Shown here in pieces: positions 2,008 to 21,561 of a stretch of 24,351 nucleotides of DNA. The notes under the pieces were generated by a model. The model was not told the origin of the DNA. It worked only from the letters and a program-made list of their open reading frames with translations, and ran no database searches. This stretch comes from a virus. Every line of letters starts with the position of its first letter. Within the stretch, counting starts at the first letter, position 1. The stretch lies in the UHGV virus genome UHGV-0125333; one strand, given 5' to 3'. A program made the translations under genes and the position numbers.

Positions 2008-2805
2008 TTATAGCTCCTTTAATCGAGGCGGTTCTGGTAGAGGCATCCAGTGGGTTACACCGCCAATTGGCTCATCGTCGTCGTACTCCAATGCGGCTAT
2101 ATAGAACCCGTCACGACGAGAATAAGAAATCCCGGACATTACAATGCCATCCGAAACAACAATAATGTCACCCGTTTCTTTCGGCATTCGCTCACTACAG
2201 CTTATCCAACCATCCGGAGTCACCGGAAGCGAGAACGGCAGCACATCTCTGTGAACAAGTTTTTGCTGTGACAGGTTATCCAGAACTTTCTGTACTGCTG
2301 CATCACCGAATACACCAAGCGCATCTGCCATAACTCCTACAACCTGATAAGCCTCAGCGCATACCGTGGATAAACCATCCGGAATTACCGGAGAGTTGCC
2401 GGGTTCTTTAATGTGCAAGCGAGGCTCACCATCTTTTGGTTCAGGCCACTGGCGCTCCATGTTGATCTTCAATTTATCTTCCATAGCAGCGGTAATTTCA
2501 GCATCGCTGATGCCAGCACGGCGCTGTGCATCCCACAACAGGAAATGCATATCAGCCCACTCGCTGAGATCGTCTGGTTCGGCTGCGGCTTCCAGAGCCT
2601 CTTTTGAGAGGTGTTTCAGTGGACCAATGGGGCCAACGCAGCCAAATGTGGAGTCAGACCATTTGGCATGCTCGTGGCGAATCAGTTCGCGTTCCAGTGA
2701 TGCCAGTGCAATTCGTGCCAGTTCCATTTGTTCGCCACGAGTAAGCCCGTTTTCAAGCGGATTTTTAATGAACAATTCAATACGTTCTTTGGTAATAGTG
2801 GTCAT
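2008..2805 (-). CDS. Phage protein with N-terminal dATP/dGTP diphosphohydrolase-like (DUF550) domain and C-terminal DUF551 domain
   Basis: 265-aa ORF with an AAGGAC RBS. The N-terminal half resembles the MazG-like DUF550 family and the C-terminal half (DGWISCSERMP ... GVTHWMPLPEPP) the DUF551 family, a combination common in enterobacterial prophages. Assigned from recall only. Confidence 0.7.
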   Translation of the reverse strand: MTTITKERIELFIKNPLENGLTRGEQMELARIALASLERELIRHEHAKWSDSTFGCVGPIGPLKHLSKEALEAAAEPDDLSEWADMHFLLWDAQRRAGISDAEITAAMEDKLKINMERQWPEPKDGEPRLHIKEPGNSPVIPDGLSTVCAEAYQVVGVMADALGVFGDAAVQKVLDNLSQQKLVHRDVLPFSLPVTPDGWISCSERMPKETGDIIVVSDGIVMSGISYSRRDGFYIAALEYDDDEPIGGVTHWMPLPEPPRLKEL

Positions 2806-2815
2806 TTGTTAGTCC

Positions 2816-3571
2816 TTAAACTGCTAGTTGCAATTGCATTTCAAAGCGGTCGCGTTGTTCACAATACGCAAGAGAACCAGGGCTATTGTGTGCCTCAATC
2901 CGTTCTACCATTAATGCTGCGCGTGTCTCTTTACTTGCAGGTGCATAAGCCCCAGACCAGGCTTTATCAATACCGATGTTTCGAGCGACGTTCGTACTAT
3001 CTGCGCTGGCTAAGGGTAATTTTGTGAATATCAGCGGATTTAACATGCGCAATCCATGTAGTTTCGTAACCGGCTGACCATGCCCATCAACAATGTGACG
3101 AATCAGGTCTTTCATTCTGGCTACCGCAAGAGTTGGGCGCTTTACGTCATAGTCGCCACAACTACCGATAGCCACTCGCGGAAACTCATTGCACAAATGA
3201 ATAAATCGCGCGTCACTTTCATTCATGTGCCACACTGGAACGCCAGCTAGTTTTCCGTGAGGCCACTCATTCAGAAGCGCATCATTTTCCTCCTCTCCGC
3301 CATCAATAATATCCGGGATAATGGCAAAATCGAATCCTGGGTGATTCTTCCAGCGAGCAACAAACTCGTAGTAATCGCTCCAGTCGATTTTGTTTTTGCC
3401 AGCTGCTTTCCAGGCGGTGAATGCACCGTTGTCCAGCGCGAACGACTGACAGTATTCAGCCGCGAGATTGATCTGGCCTGAATGCGCAAAACTGATAAAC
3501 GCATGTCGCCCTTTCCATGCTCTCATTGCGCACGTATCAGGAGTAATAGGCCCACCGTGGTAGTGAATCAT
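2816..3571 (-). CDS. Hypothetical protein (251 aa), family not assigned
   Basis: Long ORF; ATG at 3571 lies 4 nt after the Ea22-like stop and is preceded by an AAGGAG RBS. The track ORF extends 14 codons further upstream. No family confidently recognised. Confidence 0.6.
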   Translation of the reverse strand: MIHYHGGPITPDTCAMRAWKGRHAFISFAHSGQINLAAEYCQSFALDNGAFTAWKAAGKNKIDWSDYYEFVARWKNHPGFDFAIIPDIIDGGEEENDALLNEWPHGKLAGVPVWHMNESDARFIHLCNEFPRVAIGSCGDYDVKRPTLAVARMKDLIRHIVDGHGQPVTKLHGLRMLNPLIFTKLPLASADSTNVARNIGIDKAWSGAYAPASKETRAALMVERIEAHNSPGSLAYCEQRDRFEMQLQLAV

Positions 3572-3572
3572 C

Positions 3573-3980
3573 TCACTCTCCTTTGATGCGAATGCCAGTA
3601 GCGCGGATTGCATCGATGACTTCAGAAACTTTGTATGCCATTACCGTTTGGTAATCATCGTGAAAATCTGTTCGATGAAGCATGCTGCTACGTTCCGGGA
3701 GCAGTATTTCCCGCGCTTCCAGTTCTGCAATGCGCTTTTTTGCTGCTTCCAGTTCATCCAGTAATTCCAGCACGGTAGCCGGATTAGCCTTGGCAACAAA
3801 ATCCCGGACTGGCTTACAATCAATCTCCGCAATGGGTTGATACGATGTGTAGCCATGCTGTCTTGTATAACTACCGTGACGAATAACGAAAAAATCACCA
3901 TTTATTTTTTTAGCCTGCCACTTATCTTCACCGGCTTTCTCTGCCGCTTCACGCAGTGCCTGAGAGTTAATTTCGCTCAC
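3573..3980 (-). CDS. Ead/Ea22-like protein
   Basis: 135-aa ORF starting MSEINSQALREAAEKAGEDKWQAKKINGDFFVIRHG with a coiled-coil-like ELLDELEAAKKRIAELEA segment; resembles the Ead/Ea22-like prophage family. Confidence 0.7.
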   Translation of the reverse strand: MSEINSQALREAAEKAGEDKWQAKKINGDFFVIRHGSYTRQHGYTSYQPIAEIDCKPVRDFVAKANPATVLELLDELEAAKKRIAELEAREILLPERSSMLHRTDFHDDYQTVMAYKVSEVIDAIRATGIRIKGE

Positions 3981-6916: not shown

Positions 6917-7049
6917 TTTTTGGGACTCCTGGCTGATTAAGTATGTCGATAAGGCGTTTCCATCCGTCACGTAATTTACGGGTGATTCGTTCAAGTAAAG
7001 ATTCGGAAGGGCAGCCAGCAACAGGCCACCCTGCAATGGCATATTGCAT
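6885..7049 (-). CDS. cIII: CIII, FtsH inhibitor that stabilises CII
   Basis: Hand translation of the minus strand from the ATG at 7049 gives [54 protein letters not shown] then stop. It is below the 60-aa cutoff of the ORF track. Confidence 0.85.
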   Translation of the reverse strand: MQYAIAGWPVAGCPSESLLERITRKLRDGWKRLIDILNQPGVPKNGSNTYGYPD

Positions 7050-7121
7050 GGTGTGCTCCTTATTTATACATAACGAAAAACGCCTCGAGTGAAGCGTTAT
7101 TGGTATGCGGTAACGCCGCGC

Positions 7122-15090: not shown

Positions 15091-15227
15091 TGTTTGAGTT
15101 TAATATGGCAGAACTTCTTCGCCACCGCTGGGGGCGTCTGCGCTTATATCGTTTCCCCGGTTCTGTTTTGACCGATTACCGAATACTGAAGAATTACGCC
15201 AAAACACTGACAGGAGCAGGAGTATGA
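15087..15227 (+). CDS. ylcG: YlcG-like 46-aa protein
   Basis: Hand translation gives [46 protein letters not shown] then stop, overlapping the rusA stop; matches DLP12 YlcG as recalled. Confidence 0.7.
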
Positions 15228-15312
15228 AGTCAGAGATAACAATCAACTAATACTGTTTTGTTGATTTTTGCTTGTAATTGGCGTTCTGGTCTGAGTTTTG
15301 TGGAGTAAGTTG

Positions 15313-15690
15313 ATGCGTGATATTCAGATGGTTCTTGAGCGTTGGGGAGCGTGGGCGGCTAATAATCATGAAGATGTGACCTGGTCGTCCATTGCCGCCG
15401 GTTTTAAGGGATTAATTCCTTCAAAAGTAAAATCTCGCCCACAATGTTGTGACGATGACGCGATGATCATTTGCGGGTGCATGGCCCGTCTGAAAAAGAA
15501 CAACAGCGATTTGCATGATTTATTGGTGGACTATTATGTCGGCGGCATGACTTTTATGGCGCTTGCACGTAAGCATGGGCGATCTGATTGTTGGGTTGGC
15601 AGGATGCTTCAGAAAGCTGAGGGCGTAGTGGAGGGTATGCTGATGGTGTTGGATCTCCGATTGGAGATGGATGCTGATTGTTCGAAATAA
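15313..15690 (+). CDS. Late-gene antiterminator Q, phage-82/QuuD type
   Basis: From the ATG at 15313: [62 protein letters not shown]..., matching the QuuD/Q82 family as recalled. Confidence 0.85.
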
Positions 15691-15694
15691 TTAA

Positions 15695-15789
15695 AGGAAA
15701 AGTTGCTGTCTGATTGTCATTAGTCTAACATTTTAAATGTTGGAATCGCAACGTAGTTATTATCATATAACAGCTTGTTTCCTGATTTA
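15695..15789 (+). promoter_or_regulatory. Candidate late promoter pR' and qut site
   Basis: Placed only from position immediately downstream of Q and upstream of a terminator; no promoter elements confidently identified. Confidence 0.35.
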
Positions 15790-15817
15790 GCCAGCCTCCC
15801 CAAAGGCTGGTCTTTTT
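15790..15817 (+). terminator. tR'-like intrinsic terminator downstream of Q
   Basis: GCCAGCC-TCCCCAAA-GGCTGG hairpin followed by TCTTTTTCT on the plus strand. Confidence 0.55.
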
Positions 15818-15845
15818 CTAATAAGTATTATTTCGGGTAGGGATT

Positions 15846-16370
15846 TTATTGTTTAACCCATAATAATTCATTGACATTGAATCCCAACTTTTGAGCGGTT
15901 CGCACATAGTCTGCTTTTACTTTATCTGGAATAGTTGGGGTCCTTGCCAGAATCCATAGGTATTCTCTGTTCGGACCACTGACAAGAGCATACTTATACT
16001 CATCATCCAGTTTGATTACATTATAGCCACCATAGAAGGGGCCAAAAAACGAAACCTTCAATGCTGCAGTTTTAGTATCTCCAGTAAAGTATGCTTTACC
16101 TTCGCTCTCGCTCCATTTATTTTTCGTTGGATCGTATCCACGGTTAAGTACACGAATCCCTCCGTCGTTCCGTTTTCCATAAGTAGCGCTGACCTGTTCC
16201 AGACCACGTTCGAACCGGTTCTCGAGGCGAGCTATTTCATACCATTTTCCGAGGTAGCGGTTGGCGTCAAAATTTGTAATCGGCTGCACACCTTTAGGTG
16301 GTGTCGGGGCCTTACATGCTATAAGAGTGAAAGAGAGTGCAATGCCAGTCAACACAGGCCATAACTTCAT
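15846..16370 (-). CDS. Bacterial lipocalin (Blc-like) outer-membrane lipoprotein
   Basis: 174-aa ORF with signal peptide and lipobox (FTLIAC) and lipocalin motifs (NFDANRYLGKWYEIARLENRFERG ... KVSFFGPFYGGYNVI) paralleling E. coli Blc; a paralogue, not blc itself. Confidence 0.85.
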   Translation of the reverse strand: MKLWPVLTGIALSFTLIACKAPTPPKGVQPITNFDANRYLGKWYEIARLENRFERGLEQVSATYGKRNDGGIRVLNRGYDPTKNKWSESEGKAYFTGDTKTAALKVSFFGPFYGGYNVIKLDDEYKYALVSGPNREYLWILARTPTIPDKVKADYVRTAQKLGFNVNELLWVKQ

Positions 16371-16562
16371 AATAAATCCTGTACTTTTGATAGTTGAGAG
16401 TAAGTATGAAAGATAGATGATTACGACCGATCACTTAAAGAACTTTCATACTATATTAGGAATAGTCCATAACAGAAAAATTGTCAGTGATGACGCCAGA
16501 AAGGCAATTTATTCCGTGCACTACACAGTTTATGTGTTAATGAATTAGTCAAGGGGGAGAAT

Positions 16563-17522
16563 ATGATAAAAAAACCTGTGATTGGAATCAGCGGTTGTTT
16601 GGCCGGTTCTGCTGTTCGTTTTGATGGTGGTCACAAAAGAGCTGACTTTTTAATGGACAAATTAGTGGAATGGGTAACATTCAGACCAGTATGTCCGGAA
16701 ATGGCTATAGGGCTGCCAGTTCCGCGTCCTGCTCTACGTCTTGTGCGCTCGATGCAAGGAAATATACGGATGTGTTTCAGCCACGACCAGAATGAGGATG
16801 TGACAGAGAGAATGACAGAGTTTAGTCGTTCTTATATGGACAAATTAAAGGATGTATCGGGGTTTGTGGTTTGTGCTAAATCTCCCAGCTGTGGCATGGA
16901 GCGCGTGCGTGTCTATGATGAAAATGGTAATCGAGGTCGTAAAGATGGAGTGGGACTATTTACGAGCACTTTGATGGAAAAGTTTTCCTGGCTACCGGTT
17001 GAAGAGGATGGGCGATTACATGATCCAGTGCTTCGTGAGAATTTTGTTGAAAGAGTTTTTGCTTTGCATGAGCTCAATCACCTTTACAAGGAGAAATTAT
17101 CAAGAAGAGAGTTATTAGCTTTTCATAGTCGTTATAAGCTTCAGTTGTTGGCGCATAGTCAGGCAGGCTATAAAGATATGGGACCATTTGTGGCTGCAAT
17201 ACACGAGTGGGCGGACCTTGAATCATACTTTGAGGTGTATCGTGATAAGCTGATGGCGATTCTCAGAAAACCTGCATCACGTAAAAATCACACGAATGTG
17301 TTGATGCATATACAGGGGTATTTTAGTAACTACTTAAGTACACGCCAGCGTAAAGAGTTGAGCGAGGTTATACTTAACTATCGTTCTGGCACATTACCTC
17401 TTCTTGCGCCGTTGACTCTGCTGAAGCATTATCTGGGTGAGTATCCTAATGATTACTTGCTTACACAGAATTACTTCGATCCCTATCCGGACGAACTGGC
17501 TCTAAGACTGACGGTAAATTAA
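16563..17522 (+). CDS. DUF523-DUF1722 fusion protein (TudS-like Cys-rich N-terminal domain plus YbgA-like C-terminal domain)
   Basis: 319-aa ORF with strong RBS (AAGGGGGAGAAT). N-terminus MIKKPVIGISGCLAGSAVRFDGGHKR with further conserved Cys (PVCPEM, SPSCGMERV) as in the DUF523 family. Assigned from recall. Confidence 0.75.
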   Translation: MIKKPVIGISGCLAGSAVRFDGGHKRADFLMDKLVEWVTFRPVCPEMAIGLPVPRPALRLVRSMQGNIRMCFSHDQNEDVTERMTEFSRSYMDKLKDVSGFVVCAKSPSCGMERVRVYDENGNRGRKDGVGLFTSTLMEKFSWLPVEEDGRLHDPVLRENFVERVFALHELNHLYKEKLSRRELLAFHSRYKLQLLAHSQAGYKDMGPFVAAIHEWADLESYFEVYRDKLMAILRKPASRKNHTNVLMHIQGYFSNYLSTRQRKELSEVILNYRSGTLPLLAPLTLLKHYLGEYPNDYLLTQNYFDPYPDELALRLTVN

Positions 17523-17873
17523 TTGTATGCGATATCATCCAAAAGGATGAGTTCCTGCATGCAGGATATTTACAATCGTAAAAACTACACTATGATACCC
17601 AGAGTGTCAGTTTGTATAAAAACTCTGTTTACTCTGAAGAAACAATTGAGATGCAACTTAAAGTTGGTAAACATGCCAGTCAAAATATATAATATTATGA
17701 TTCCACGCAGCTATATATAATATAACAGATTGGTTTAATAATTTGTCTTTGTGAGTTAAATACATAATTTTATACTTGTGATGCAATGAAATTTTCCTTA
17801 TTGTTGAACTGGCGAATATTGATTTTCCACCTATACTTACCTGGTGTAACCCCAATGATATCAGGTGGATAAT

Positions 17874-18605
17874 ATGCCATACATATGTTCTATCATTTTG
17901 GTGTTGAACTCGTTTGATGTCCGAATTGGTAAAGAAGATATTTTGTTTAAAAAAGGAAGTGCTGTTCTCATTGATTACAATTTAAAAGATTTTTTTTCAT
18001 CAAATATAGATCATGTAATGATCGTAGATGTTGAAGAGAAAACAGTTAATGATTTCTTTAAAAGCAACACACTCTCACCTTTTTCTGTAAGAAGGTTTTA
18101 TCCGGCATACTTGATGGTGGAATGTGAAGATTTTTCATTGTTAAAGAACTTGATTGCATGCTTGAATTGTGATGGCAGAACTGTGGATTTTGTTAGAAAT
18201 CAAATATCACTTGCATGTCTTGCTATCTTATCTTCAGAGAAAATAGTGCAAAGTTTTTTATTTGGATGTCTTAATAGTTTAGGAAGTAAAGTTAAGGCTA
18301 TTATTCACACGGATATATCTGCAGCATGGAGACTTTGTGATATATCTTCAAGACTGTATCTGAGTGAAAGTCTGTTAAAAAGAAAATTAAAGCACGAAGG
18401 CTTATCATTTAGTAAGTTAATTCTTGAAGAGCGAATGGTGATGGCGGAAAGGTTATTAAGCTACAATTTATATTCTGTTGGAAAAGTTGCTGAGATATGC
18501 GGTTATGAAAACACGTCATATTTTGTAAGTGTTTTCAGAAGGTATTTTGGTGTTCCTCCCCATCAATATTCATCAAGATTTTTTTTAGAAAAAGACATGA
18601 TGTAA
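17874..18605 (+). CDS. AraC/XylS-family transcriptional regulator (AppY/EnvY-like)
   Basis: ATG at 17874 (track ORF starts at GTG 17865). C-terminal AraC-type HTH (VGKVAEICGYENTSYFVSVFRRYFGVPPHQY); N-terminus MPYICSIILVLNSF parallels AppY MDYVCSVVFICQSF. AT-rich gene with a long AT-rich upstream region. Confidence 0.85.
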   Translation: MPYICSIILVLNSFDVRIGKEDILFKKGSAVLIDYNLKDFFSSNIDHVMIVDVEEKTVNDFFKSNTLSPFSVRRFYPAYLMVECEDFSLLKNLIACLNCDGRTVDFVRNQISLACLAILSSEKIVQSFLFGCLNSLGSKVKAIIHTDISAAWRLCDISSRLYLSESLLKRKLKHEGLSFSKLILEERMVMAERLLSYNLYSVGKVAEICGYENTSYFVSVFRRYFGVPPHQYSSRFFLEKDMM

Positions 18606-18792
18606 CGTGATGCGTTTTAATGATTTTGTAATTTTCGTATTTGATAATTGTATGATGCTTTCAGCTACGCCAGAATAATCGCGGCGTTTTTCTTTTTGAA
18701 TAGATGTTCAAGCCTTACGCTAATGTAACTTCTATACCTTTCCTCTTCGTTCCGAACCGTGTACACCATCCGTTATTTGCGGAGGTGAGGCT

Positions 18793-19008
18793 ATGAAATC
18801 CATGGATAAGTTAACAACGGGTGTCGCCTATGGCACCTCAGCAGGTAGTGCCGGTTACTGGTTTTTACAGCTGCTCGATAAAGTCACGCCCTCACAGTGG
18901 GCAGCAATAGGTGTGCTGGGTAGCCTGGTATTTGGCCTGCTGACGTACCTGACAAACCTTTATTTCAAGATTAAAGAAGATAAGCGCAAGGCTGCGAGAG
19001 GTGAATAA
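18793..19008 (+). CDS. Class II holin (pinholin), phage-21 S / EssD type, with dual-start motif
   Basis: 71-aa [74 protein letters not shown]. Met1 and Met4 give antiholin/holin starts; strong RBS GGAGGTGAGG. Confidence 0.9.
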
Positions 19009-19505
19009 TGCCTCCATCATTACGAAAAGCCGTTGCTGCTGCTATTGGTGGCGGAGCAATTGCTATAGCATCAGTGTTAATCACTGGCCCAAGTGGTAAC
19101 GATGGTCTGGAAGGTGTCAGCTACATACCATACAAAGATATCGTTGGCGTATGGACTGTATGTCACGGGCATACAGGAAAAGACATCATTCCCGGTAAAA
19201 CGTATACCGAAGCAGAATGCAAAGCCCTCCTGAATAAAGACCTTGCCACGGTAGCCAGACAAATTAACCCGTACATCAAAGTCGATATACCGGAAACAAC
19301 GCGCGGCGCTCTTTACTCGTTCGTCTATAACGTGGGCGCAGGCAATTTCAGAACATCTACTCTTCTTCGCAAAATAAACCAGGGCGATATCAAGGGCGCA
19401 TGTGACCAGCTACGTCGCTGGGCATACGCTGGCGGTAAGCAATGGAAAGGCCTGATGACTCGTCGTGAGATTGAGCGTGAGGTCTGTTTGTGGGGGCAAC
19501 AATGA
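19008..19505 (+). CDS. SAR endolysin (lysozyme, phage-21 R type)
   Basis: 165-aa ORF with an N-terminal Gly/Ala-rich signal-anchor-release segment ([20 protein letters not shown]) and a lysozyme-like body; start overlaps the holin stop (TAATG). Confidence 0.9.
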
Positions 19506-19966
19506 GCAGGGTAACCGCGATTATCTCCGCTCTGGTTATCTGCATCGTCGTCTGCCTGTCATGGGGTGTTAATCATTACCGTGATAACGCCATCGCCTAC
19601 AAAGAACAGCGCGACAAAAATGCCAGAGAACTGAAGCTGGCGAACGCGGCAATTACTGACATGCAGATGCGTCAGCGTGATGTTGCTGCGCTCGATGCAA
19701 AATACACGAAGGAGTTAGCTGATGCGAAAGCTGAAAATGATGTTCTGCGTGATGATGTTGCCGCTGGTCGTCGTCGGTTGCACATCAAAGCAGTCTGTCA
19801 GTCAGTGCGTGAAGCCACCACCGCCTCCGGCGTGGATAATGCAGCCTCCCCCCGACTGGCAGACACCGCTGAACGGGATTATTTCACCCTCCGGGAACGA
19901 CTGGTAATGATGCAGGCCCAACTTGAAGGTGCTCAGCAATACATAACCGAGCAGTGTTTAAAGTAA
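19502..19966 (+). CDS. Rz i-spanin
   Basis: From the ATG at 19502: [60 protein letters not shown]..., matching lambda Rz; overlaps the endolysin stop. Confidence 0.9.
19722..19907 (+). CDS. Rz1 o-spanin lipoprotein, embedded in Rz in the +1 frame
   Basis: ORF with lipobox LPLVVVGC and a proline-rich tail ([25 protein letters not shown]), matching lambda Rz1. Confidence 0.8.
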
Positions 19967-20103
19967 AATCTTAACTACAATATGATTCATTTTGATGATT
20001 GTTTCATAAGGAACAGTGAAGTAAGATCTAAGAGGAGTTAAATTTTATACAGTATAATCATAATATTGCAGCAAGGTGGTTATAATTGAAAGAATATTTA
20101 GAT

Positions 20104-21561
20104 ATGAATACATCTCATGTAAGAGTTGTTACTCATATGTGTGGGTTCCTGGTTTGGCTCTATAGTCTTTCAATGTTGCCACCAATGGTTGTAGCATTGT
20201 TTTATAAAGAAAAAAGCCTGTTCGTTTTCTTTATAACTTTCGTTATATTTTTTTGCATTGGTGGCGGAGCGTGGTATACAACTAAGAAATCTGGCATTCA
20301 ATTACGTACCCGTGATGGGTTTATTATAATTGTAATGTTTTGGATTTTGTTTTCTGTTATTAGTGCATTCCCTTTATGGATTGACTCAGAACTTAATTTA
20401 ACGTTCATTGATGCTCTGTTTGAAGGGGTTTCTGGAATAACAACAACAGGAGCAACTGTAATTGATGATGTTAGTTCATTACCTCGGGCATATTTGTACT
20501 ATCGGTCACAGTTAAATTTTATAGGTGGTTTAGGAGTTATTGTTCTGGCGGTTGCTGTATTGCCATTATTGGGTATTGGTGGTGCAAAGCTTTATCAGTC
20601 AGAAATGCCGGGGCCATTTAAGGATGACAAACTCACTCCCCGCCTGGCCGATACGTCACGGACACTGTGGATAACTTATTCTTTATTAGGTATTGCTTGT
20701 ATTGTCTGTTATAGACTTGCAGGAATGCCTTTGTTTGATGCTATTTGTCACGGGATTTCCACAGTTTCGCTTGGTGGTTTCTCAACTCATAGCGAGAGTA
20801 TCGGATATTTTAATAACTATTTGGTTGAGCTGGTGGCTGGTTCTTTTTCCCTGCTATCGGCTTTCAACTTCACTCTTTGGTATATTGTTATTAGCAGGAA
20901 AACGATAAAACCTTTAATCAGAGATATTGAACTTCGTTTCTTTCTGTTAATAGCCTTAGGGGTGATCATTGTTACCTCTTTCCAGGTCTGGCATATAGGT
21001 ATGTATGACTTGCATGGAAGTTTTATTCATTCGTTTTTTCTTGCCAGCTCCATGCTCACTGATAATGGTTTAGCTACGCAGGATTATGCAAGTTGGCCCA
21101 CGCACACGATAGTGTTTTTGCTGTTGTCAAGTTTCTTTGGGGGATGTATAGGTTCAACTTGTGGTGGAATTAAGTCACTTCGATTTCTTATACTTTTCAA
21201 ACAAAGCAAACACGAGATAAATCAGCTTTCTCATCCCAGAGCGTTGTTGAGTGTAAATGTAGGAGGGAAGATAGTTACAGATCGTGTAATGAGGTCTGTA
21301 TGGAGTTTCTTTTTTCTTTATACTCTCTTCACGGTGTTTTTTATACTGGTGTTAAATGGTATGGGATATGATTTTCTTACATCATTTGCAACAGTGGCTG
21401 CATGTATTAATAATATGGGATTAGGTTTTGGGGCTACTGCATCGTCATTCGGAGTGCTTAATGACATTGCAAAATGTTTAATGTGCATAGCTATGATTCT
21501 TGGTCGCCTTGAAATTTATCCTGTTATTATATTGTTTTCAGGTTTTTTTTGGCGCTCCTAA
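20104..21561 (+). CDS. trkG: TrkG/TrkH-family K+ uptake membrane protein
   Basis: 485 aa from the ATG at 20104 (MNTSHVRVVTHMCGFLVWLYSLSMLPP...), multi-pass membrane protein matching Rac-prophage TrkG as recalled; AT-rich coding sequence. Confidence 0.88.
   Translation: MNTSHVRVVTHMCGFLVWLYSLSMLPPMVVALFYKEKSLFVFFITFVIFFCIGGGAWYTTKKSGIQLRTRDGFIIIVMFWILFSVISAFPLWIDSELNLTFIDALFEGVSGITTTGATVIDDVSSLPRAYLYYRSQLNFIGGLGVIVLAVAVLPLLGIGGAKLYQSEMPGPFKDDKLTPRLADTSRTLWITYSLLGIACIVCYRLAGMPLFDAICHGISTVSLGGFSTHSESIGYFNNYLVELVAGSFSLLSAFNFTLWYIVISRKTIKPLIRDIELRFFLLIALGVIIVTSFQVWHIGMYDLHGSFIHSFFLASSMLTDNGLATQDYASWPTHTIVFLLLSSFFGGCIGSTCGGIKSLRFLILFKQSKHEINQLSHPRALLSVNVGGKIVTDRVMRSVWSFFFLYTLFTVFFILVLNGMGYDFLTSFATVAACINNMGLGFGATASSFGVLNDIAKCLMCIAMILGRLEIYPVIILFSGFFWRS

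Follow-up and report, generated by a model that had tools for sequence, protein, structure and literature searches.

The open reading frame at 16563..17522 (+ strand) of the window, by which we mean the whole stretch of 24,351 nucleotides analysed here, very probably encodes RudS, a tRNA 4-thiouridine (s4U) eraser, carried as cargo of a lambdoid E. coli prophage. RudS is a fusion of TudS with a DUF1722 domain and acts as a [4Fe-4S] desulfidase that converts s4U in tRNA to uridine (Jamontas et al., Nucleic Acids Res 2024, PMC11417400). The enzyme itself is not new, since its family, its mechanism and a phage copy nearly identical to it have been in the literature since 2024. What appears to be new is that rudS is present in approximately one-fifth of complete E. 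coli genomes, contrary to published statements. The match of the phage blc/rudS genes to a chromosomal pair, together with the missing MerR-type regulator, also seems to be unreported.

The rudS frame starts with ATG, which is preceded at a distance of 5-7 nt by a strong Shine-Dalgarno sequence (GGGGGAG), and encodes 319 amino acids. It had been described in the initial annotation as a fusion of DUF523 and DUF1722, and profile searches identify both domains in the one 319-aa polypeptide. The TudS/DUF523 catalytic domain (PF04463, 2-thiour_desulf) covers residues 7-149 (16581..17009, + strand; E=4.5e-40, 137 bits against a Pfam cut-off of 34.7), and the DUF1722 domain (PF08349) covers residues 192-309 (17136..17489, + strand; E=5.8e-41, 140 bits against a cut-off of 22.5). 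The best PDB matches of the AlphaFold model in a Foldseek search were the TudS structures 6z96_A and 6zw9_A, with a probability of 1.0; the N-terminal half matched TudS only, and the DUF1722 half had no PDB match. Built on a shallow alignment of 30 sequences with at least 70% identity, the model has a moderate mean pLDDT of 67.7 and a poor C-terminus, and it serves for the match of the TudS domain only. The PHROGs match of the protein is family 3275, which has no function label there. Two other assignments were rejected. A stand-alone TudS, a protein of ~150-165 aa whose substrates are free thiolated bases or nucleotides, is ruled out by the added DUF1722 domain. The 169-aa, DUF1722-only YbgA (NCBIfam PRK10167) matched residues 160-315 only, with 191 bits against a cut-off of 237; because this score lies below the equivalog cut-off and concerns the DUF1722 half only, the PGAP label 'YbgA family protein' is loose.

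The window RudS has five cysteines, at positions 12, 44, 71, 104 and 110. The conserved Cys ligands that the fusion had been expected to contain are present as C12 (16596-16598), C44 (16692-16694) and C110 (16890-16892), all encoded on the + strand and numbered as in the published RudS_vir and RudS_ST (PMC11417400). These three are kept in 136-138 of 140 diverse full-length homologues, among which C71 and C104 are not conserved. The catalytic residues E46 (16698-16700), the orienting arginine R55 (16725-16727), S107 (16881-16883) and S109 (16887-16889), likewise on the + strand, are each kept in 132-139 of the 140 homologues. They are the equivalents of E51, R60, S111 and S113 of RudS_KT (Pseudomonas putida PP_0741), in which C17, C49 and C114 correspond to the cluster ligands. 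RudS_KT shares the two-domain architecture but is a distant relative, whose chromosomal gene shares a light-responsive operon with phrB and the gene of a LitR/MerR regulator. Mutants of its cluster-Cys, Glu, Ser and Arg residues are inactive (PMC11417400).

Residues that contact tRNA can be placed approximately, RudS_KT numbering having been carried over by way of P0149, its nearest representative, with identity at 19 of 36 positions. In this proxy alignment, whose register is approximate, the RudS_KT set R24, N26, G27, E152/R155 and S243/R244, in which mutations reduce the activity of the enzyme, corresponds to R19, D21, G22, E148/R151/H153 and S239/R240, with D21 in place of the asparagine and an E..R.H pattern at E148/R151/H153; F20 in place of Y25 is likewise mapped by proxy only. 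The A-S-R motif (A238 S239 R240) of the DUF1722 domain is invariant across the enterobacterial alignment, and its counterpart by the same proxy is S243/R244 of RudS_KT, mutation of which lowers activity.

RudS_vir of phage 1H12 (gp66, H3V29_gp66) is also 319 aa long and 93% identical to the window protein without gaps, and none of the 21 substitutions falls at a catalytic position. The two loci are alike in their order of Q, blc on the opposite strand, rudS, an AraC-like gene and the holin. They differ in that the genes fall into separate allele classes (92% nucleotide identity, dS 0.30), and that the window copy lies inside an integrated prophage that also carries trkG. At this dS, a dN/dS of ~0.11 between rudS alleles indicates purifying selection. 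Overexpression of six RudS genes, including that of RudS_vir, lowered the s4U of E. coli tRNA 4.7- to 26-fold, and the in vivo results for RudS all come from overexpression (PMC11417400). Purified RudS_KT contains an Fe-S cluster, binds tRNA and desulfurises it in vitro, and RudS_KT also reduces the growth delay caused by UVA (PMC11417400).

By analogy with these enzymes and with TudS, for which a mechanism has been described (PMC10611767), the window RudS would be a monomeric, two-domain protein in which the TudS domain holds a [4Fe-4S] cluster on C12, C44 and C110. The fourth iron of the cluster would be available for binding of the sulfur from the 4-thiouridine at position 8 of the tRNA, and Glu46, placed by Arg55, Ser107 and Ser109, would activate a water molecule to attack C4. 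The sulfur would then pass to the cluster, giving a [4Fe-5S] intermediate, and leave as sulfide, with uridine restored. The DUF1722 domain probably docks the tRNA via its anticodon arm, so that RudS would act on tRNA and not on free bases. E. coli encodes thiI, the s4U synthase. The expected result is a decrease in the s4U of host tRNA and, with it, in UVA-induced tRNA cross-linking, growth delay and stringent response. An action on modified nucleobases or nucleotides, as suggested earlier for this frame, pointed to the right kind of chemistry but has been overtaken, since the RudS family acts on s4U in intact tRNA (PMC11417400).

The window begins at a lambda-type integrase, and in the closest matching genomes the prophage lies between ybhC and ybhB/bioA, which is the lambda attachment region. 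The view of rudS as prophage cargo stands, as the frame is located between the Q antiterminator and the holin of this lambdoid prophage. The upstream edge of the cargo slot is formed by the late-gene activator Q (15313..15690, + strand; PF06530 Phage_antitermQ, E=2.5e-51), which is labelled antiterminator Q family protein in matching genomes and occupies the same place as quuD in DLP12. Approximately 100 nt 3' of Q lies a terminator-like hairpin with a U-run (15790..15821, + strand; -14.2 kcal/mol, z=-3.6), which is kept in phage 1H12 and a Qin-like prophage. This is the sole terminator-like site predicted in 15200-19100, so none other is found between Q and the lysis genes, and it is a putative tR' that would be read through by Q-modified polymerase. 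Small hairpins 3' of the rudS stop codon (z=-4.4) have no U-run, a hairpin ahead of the holin that does have one was no better than shuffles, and an Rfam search returned the lambda cIII thermoregulator only, with nothing near the cassette. The divergent partner of rudS is a Blc-like outer-membrane lipocalin (15846..16370, - strand; Pfam Lipocalin_2, E=7e-44), which scores 316 bits against a cut-off of 267 for the NCBIfam Blc subfamily and has a dN/dS of 0.06. The holin, lysozyme and Rz frames (18793..19966, + strand), labelled essD, rrrD and lysis protein in matching genomes, form the downstream edge. The slot between Q and the holin is occupied by nmpC in DLP12 of K-12 and by a porin gene in phage ev243, and blc-rudS-araC is a lambdoid moron, that is, cargo between Q/tR' and the lysis genes.

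Given this location, Q-antiterminated late transcription should read through rudS in lytic growth. To express rudS, a lysogen would require a separate promoter, and this would fall in the blc-rudS intergenic region (16371..16562), where the rudS ribosome-binding site is also found. A sigma-70 promoter scan of 15200-19100 gave 13 sites against 11.1 expected, and neither this number nor a weak promoter-like match at 16394-16421 is above chance; therefore, no promoter can be assigned to rudS. The intergenic region is 90% identical to that of 1H12, which is no higher than in the coding regions and thus gives no evidence for a constrained operator, and no alignment was obtained with the intergenic regions of Kluyvera. 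The third gene of the cassette (17874..18605, + strand; Pfam HTH_18 and HTH_AraC) encodes an AppY/YdeO-like regulator of the AraC family. Its best NCBIfam match is YdeO (E=7e-37, under the YdeO cut-off), and it is 32% identical over its full length to both AppY and YdeO, which are global or acid-response regulators. The initial annotation had correctly placed a regulator next to rudS, but this gene is unlikely to be a dedicated partner. Chromosomal rudS has no equivalent of it nearby, the regulator there being of the MerR/MlrA type and not of the AraC type, and the phage gene stands out by a low, very different G+C content (~32%). The regulator looks like a separate acquisition.

It had also been assumed that enterobacterial chromosomes usually carry a short DUF1722 protein only. 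This is not the case, because the fused 319-aa form is found in other Enterobacterales, E. coli with its YbgA being the exception. Fused 319-aa proteins make up the nearest 120 protein clusters (Citrobacter, Klebsiella, Enterobacter, Serratia, Salmonella, Pectobacterium, Dickeya and others). All 80 fetched Enterobacterales loci, searched with the enterobacterial alignment, as the diverse alignment had no conserved stretch, encode a relative that matches the query over both domains. In the published survey, 74.4% of DUF1722 genes are fused to TudS (PMC11417400). RudS_ST, or ORF319 (Salmonella enterica LT2 STM1389), and the chromosomal 319-aa enterobacterial RudS proteins have the same length and Cys numbering as the window protein and, in what is here called lineage A, are 67-77% identical to it. 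A divergent Blc-like lipocalin gene lies upstream of chromosomal rudS in many species, as in the phage; it is present at 22 of the 36 lineage-A loci, the pair being found in Enterobacter, Kluyvera and relatives, and in Kluyvera the arrangement is that of the phage, with a spacing of 112-116 bp. The window Blc is 73-82% identical to the lipocalins at these 22 Enterobacterales loci, as against 60% to the chromosomal Blc of K-12, and has no similarity to the two proteins (unassigned and DUF3833) upstream of Citrobacter rudS. Chromosomal rudS is accompanied by a MerR/MlrA-type regulator or stands last in a CFA-synthase/DUF3833 operon, whereas phage rudS is without such a regulator and sits in a late-gene slot. 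These comparative data suggest that blc-rudS was most likely captured from a divergent blc/rudS locus on the chromosome of a different Enterobacteriaceae member, and that the native MerR-type regulator was most likely lost during the capture.

Full-length rudS is present in 1064 of 5426 complete E. coli genomes (19.6%). The Q-blc-rudS-araC-holin cassette is kept on three lambdoid backbones (att-lambda-type, Qin-like and iss/bor-type) and is also found in isolated viable phages, among which IdasGreatGrand encodes a protein 99% identical to the window RudS. Many of the prophages that carry rudS are defective, and partial copies exist. Both the RudS paper (PMC11417400) and a 2026 review describe E. 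coli as lacking RudS, and this absence has been used to explain species differences in the UVA response. Because ~20% of complete genomes carry prophage rudS, studies of s4U, UVA and the stringent response could be confounded by the strain chosen. In BL21, which is widely used for expression, the rudS copy is interrupted by IS3.

An alternative is that the phage enzyme serves mainly in a TudS-like salvage or detoxification of free 4-thiouracil, 4-thiouridine or 4-thio-UMP, for example of tRNA breakdown products in infection, and that tRNA erasure is secondary. Among the RudS enzymes tested, the lag on free 4-thiouracil was shortest for RudS_vir, whose tRNA desulfidation was seemingly below that of the others despite good expression and high soluble protein (PMC11417400), so that its substrate balance may be shifted; stand-alone TudS, moreover, prefers 4-thio-UMP (PMC10611767). 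However, the RudS enzymes tested, the phage one included, used free 4-thiouracil poorly and 2-thiouracil not at all, none of them rescued a uracil auxotroph as TudS did, and tRNA s4U was lowered by RudS_vir (PMC11417400). TudS (PDB 6Z92/6Z96) resembles the N-terminal domain of the window RudS in fold, [4Fe-4S] ligands and catalytic Glu/Ser but is without DUF1722, and it acts on free 4-thiouracil and 4-thio-UMP and leaves tRNA alone, tRNA s4U not being lowered in vivo (PMC11417400, PMC10611767). The extra DUF1722 domain thus has a purpose, and purifying selection acts on it as on the remainder of the gene, its conserved motifs being retained. Salvage as the main activity is therefore improbable, and erasure of tRNA s4U is the preferred function. 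Still less credible, and in our estimation very nearly negligible, is the idea that rudS is an inert passenger or a decaying remnant in the prophage. The defective state of many carrier prophages and truncated copies such as that cut by IS3 in BL21 would fit this idea, but the window frame is intact with all catalytic residues, and the dN/dS of 0.11 across alleles at dS 0.30 speaks for selection. Full-length copies also occur in 1064 genomes and in viable isolated phages, and the 93%-identical allele is active (PMC11417400).

The biological role of rudS is a separate matter, and a use by the phage itself is compatible with the function of a tRNA s4U desulfidase. Such a use is a tentative possibility and may take two putative forms: depletion of s4U could sustain translation, SOS induction and late protein synthesis during prophage induction in sunlit cells, or it could make the lysogen a poorer host for superinfecting lambdoid phages. 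In favour of a phage purpose, the position of rudS is within the Q-dependent late region, immediately before the lysis genes, and the gene is kept under purifying selection on several backbones and in 19.6% of complete E. coli genomes. As for the first form, the s4U-dependent growth delay was reportedly linked to SOS expression by Caldeira de Araujo and Favre (EMBO J 1986). This form also agrees with the cross-linking of s4U8 to C13 by UVA, which stalls translation, and with the relief of growth delay by RudS_KT (PMC11417400 for RudS_KT). The second is consistent with the mild but significant inhibition of lambda replication by a thiI deletion, which removes s4U, although according to the authors this effect may reflect competition for sulfur flux and not s4U itself (PMC3296357). 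Against a phage purpose, the two forms pull opposite ways, and neither RudS nor Blc nor the AraC regulator matched a known defence system in PADLOC. With similar reserve, it can be proposed that lambdoid prophages might make s4U erasure a horizontally transferred, strain-variable trait of E. coli, taken off MerR light control and placed under Q-dependent late and/or AraC-linked control. In about one-fifth of strains, this could change the growth delay under UVA, the stringent response and SOS behaviour, or it could tune prophage induction, burst size or superinfection in sunlight. As a tRNA-modification eraser located in the late operon of a temperate phage, RudS would allow an easy test of whether a phage edits the epitranscriptome of its host.

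The comparative data that trace the cassette to a chromosomal blc/rudS pair also offer an explanation for YbgA. E. coli YbgA (b0707), a stand-alone DUF1722 protein encoded upstream of phr, is homologous to residues 164-315 of the window RudS (49% identity) but lacks the TudS domain and leaves tRNA s4U unaffected (PMC11417400). No remnant of the TudS half was found at the E. coli ybgA locus. YbgA is closer to the phr-linked RudS of lineage B (58%) than to lineage A (51%), and ybgA adjoins an H-repeat transposase; YbgA thus looks like the product of an N-terminally truncated, phr-linked rudS gene of lineage B.

The ORF at 16563-17522 (+), which begins with an ATG at 16563 behind a strong ribosome-binding site (GGGGGAG) and ends with the stop codon at 17520-17522, encodes a 319-aa protein with a 2-thiour_desulf domain (DUF523/TudS; residues 7-149, Pfam E=4.5e-40) and a DUF1722 domain (residues 192-309, Pfam E=5.8e-41), both far over the cut-off. 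Of its five cysteines, C12, C44 and C110 are kept in 136-138 of 140 sequences in an alignment of the protein with 139 diverse full-length homologues (37-56% identity), in which C71 and C104 are not conserved. The domain matches and the conserved cysteines thus confirm the TudS-DUF1722 fusion proposed in the initial annotation, and the full catalytic set (C12, C44, C110, E46, R55, S107 and S109) is present. In the AlphaFold model, which is of moderate quality (pLDDT 67.7), the N-terminal half matches no PDB entries other than the TudS structures 6z96 and 6zw9; a direct PDB sequence search also returned TudS only, so that neither search found a structure of DUF1722. PGAP labels the protein 'YbgA family protein'. 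Because the NCBIfam YbgA equivalog matches residues 160-315 only and scores 191 bits, below its cut-off of 237, the protein does not count as a YbgA equivalent.

Fusion of TudS to DUF1722 is the architecture that defines RudS, which takes sulfur off 4-thiouridine (s4U) in tRNA (Jamontas et al., Nucleic Acids Res 2024, PMC11417400). The s4U content of E. coli tRNA fell 4.7- to 26-fold upon overexpression of six RudS genes, and purified RudS_KT, the Pseudomonas putida enzyme, bound and desulfurised tRNA in vitro; activity was lost when the cluster cysteines or any of E51, S111, S113 and R60 were mutated, and the UVA-induced growth delay was shorter upon RudS_KT overexpression (PMC11417400). Among the six was RudS_vir (gp66 of Escherichia phage 1H12), for which Cys12, Cys44 and Cys110 are listed (PMC11417400). 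RudS_vir aligns with the window protein without gaps at 93% identity (298/319 residues), none of the 21 differences lies at a catalytic or ligand position, and the 1H12 gene order, Q, blc (-), gp66, AraC-like gene and holin, is that of the window; the isolated phage IdasGreatGrand carries the same cassette with a 99%-identical protein. By extension from the residues and domains present here and from the activity published for RudS_vir, the window allele is predicted to be an s4U desulfidase. The earlier suggestion of a nucleobase-modifying enzyme was right in part, and has been overtaken by the 2024 paper, in which the family and a near-identical phage copy were already characterised. What remains of interest is how prevalent rudS is in E. 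coli, contrary to published statements, where the cassette probably came from, and what a tRNA eraser might do in the late region of a temperate phage.

According to a mechanism drawn from the TudS and RudS literature, with the residues checked in the window protein, the three cysteines would hold a [4Fe-4S] cluster whose free iron would bind the thiocarbonyl sulfur of s4U8. Glu46, positioned by Arg55, Ser107 and Ser109, would take a proton from water, and the resulting hydroxide would attack C4, with the sulfur retained by the cluster in a [4Fe-5S] intermediate and then released. DUF1722 would contact the anticodon arm of the tRNA.

The window is part of a lambda-like prophage, with a lambda-type integrase (50-1120, -), ea8.5, Ead/Ea22, SieB, N, the lambda cIII thermoregulator RNA (7004-7062, -; Rfam RF01804, 88.5 bits, E=1e-20), O/P-type replication genes, NinB, Dam methylase and RusA. 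In the closest matching genomes it is located at the lambda attachment region, between ybhC and ybhB/bioA. Q (15313-15690), blc for a lipocalin (15846-16370, -), rudS and an AraC-type regulator gene (17874-18605) are followed by holin, lysozyme, Rz, trkG, a ParB-like gene and terminase. Between Q and holin lies a classical cargo slot, occupied by nmpC in DLP12 of K-12 and by a porin gene in phage ev243, and the description of the fusion gene as prophage cargo beside a regulator is accordingly upheld. The only terminator-like site detected in 15200-19100, a strong hairpin plus U-run (15790-15821), is kept among cassette-carrying phages and is plausibly tR'. From its position, rudS is predicted to be strongly transcribed late in lytic growth in a Q-dependent manner; a promoter scan for expression in the lysogen gave matches not above chance.

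E. coli has been stated to be without RudS (PMC11417400; likewise a 2026 review), which is true for K-12 and untrue for the species. With a coverage of at least 80%, rudS alone is found in 1064 of 5426 complete E. coli genomes (19.6%), at one to three places per genome and nearly always on the chromosome, and the complete cassette of 3.8 kb in 979. At least three lambdoid backbones carry the cassette: an att-lambda type, a Qin-like type with ydfU, rrrQ and cspI, and an iss/bor-carrying type identical to 1H12 in the cassette region. Among deposited phage genomes, full-length rudS occurs only in 12 E. coli lambdoid phages. The window and 1H12 alleles differ at 8% of nucleotides, and because dN/dS is 0.11 at a dS of 0.30, rudS is under purifying selection and is not decaying; for blc, the AraC gene and Q, dN/dS is 0.06, 0.26 and 0.10, respectively. 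In BL21 (NZ_CP053601.1, 1558651-1558797), the cassette lies in a Qin-like prophage and an IS3 insertion cuts rudS off after 147 bp; the published RudS overexpression assays were done in BL21(DE3).

The view that the fusion is unusual, enterobacteria mostly having a short YbgA, does not hold, since the nearest relatives outside E. coli, at 70-77% identity, are likewise fusions of 319 aa and come from Citrobacter, Kluyvera, Klebsiella, Enterobacter, Serratia, Salmonella, Pectobacterium, Dickeya, Kosakonia and Buttiauxella. With one genome scanned per species, 80 Enterobacterales loci were obtained. One was excluded: a 3.2-kb contig labelled as a Candidatus Nanosynbacter MAG (JARKOR010000151.1), which encodes RudS and the AraC regulator at 93% and 99% identity, respectively, and almost certainly represents E. 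coli prophage DNA wrongly binned with a Saccharibacteria MAG. The 79 loci used split into lineages A (36 loci) and B (43 loci), with rudS products 67-77% and 56-63% identical to the window protein, respectively. In lineage B, 41 of 43 loci have phr 14-176 bp downstream and none has Blc beside rudS, whereas phr adjoins rudS in none of the 36 lineage A loci. A Blc-like lipocalin gene (product 73-82% identical to phage Blc), always divergent, lies upstream in 22 of these, and in 14 rudS is the last gene of a SnoaL/SDR/amine-oxidase/DUF1365/CFA-synthase/DUF2878/DUF3833 operon. Two Kluyvera and one unclassified Enterobacteriaceae have the layout of the phage, with a blc-rudS gap of 112-116 bp as against 192 bp. 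In Enterobacter, a MerR/MlrA-type regulator gene and a transthyretin/HIUase gene intervene, as in Enterobacter intestinihominis (locus L025, 6021-8960: blc (-), regulator of 241 aa, transthyretin/HIUase-family protein of 136 aa, rudS). The size of this regulator agrees with that of ORF242, reported beside ORF319 in Salmonella SPI-2.

At the K-12 ybgA locus (739001-740925), phr is directly downstream, the H-repeat transposase gene ybfD is directly upstream, and no remnant of the TudS half is detectable. YbgA is 58% identical to lineage B C-termini and 51% to those of lineage A, and we infer that E. coli YbgA is an N-terminally truncated lineage B RudS. Because identity between phage Blc and the native Blc of E. 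coli is only 60%, the cassette appears to carry a lineage A blc/rudS pair from another enterobacterium, minus the MerR regulator. The AraC-type gene has a very low G+C content (about 32%) and no counterpart beside chromosomal rudS in the Enterobacterales loci compared, and was probably acquired separately. Its product belongs to PHROG 1450 (no function given) and has 32% full-length identity to the prophage regulator AppY, and likewise to YdeO. Other prophage AraC-like regulators act on host regulons, and by analogy this one may target acid-response or other regulons of the host.

Published pointers to the role of s4U removal diverge. As a UVA target, s4U leads to tRNA cross-linking, translation arrest and a ppGpp burst, which RudS relieves (PMC11417400), and lambda replication is mildly inhibited by thiI deletion (PMC3296357). 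Therefore, two roles are conceivable: RudS could shield translation, for phage or lysogen, when cells are exposed to light, or could render the lysogen less suitable as a host for other phages. Defence-system models gave no match.

Directly past the rudS stop codon, three small hairpins at 17535-17582 (fold z=-4.4), which include the perfect palindrome TCCTGCATGCAGGA and are not followed by a U-run, may affect RNA stability or be bound by a protein. In the early-left (b-region-like) part, the ORF at 2008-2805 (-) encodes a dATP/dGTP pyrophosphohydrolase domain fused to DUF551, and the adjoining 265-aa ORF at 2816-3613 (-) has no Pfam match. Additional cargo is the trkG-type potassium transporter gene at 20086-21561 (TrkH Pfam E=5e-145), directly 3' of the Rz lysis gene and comparable to trkG in the Rac prophage of K-12.
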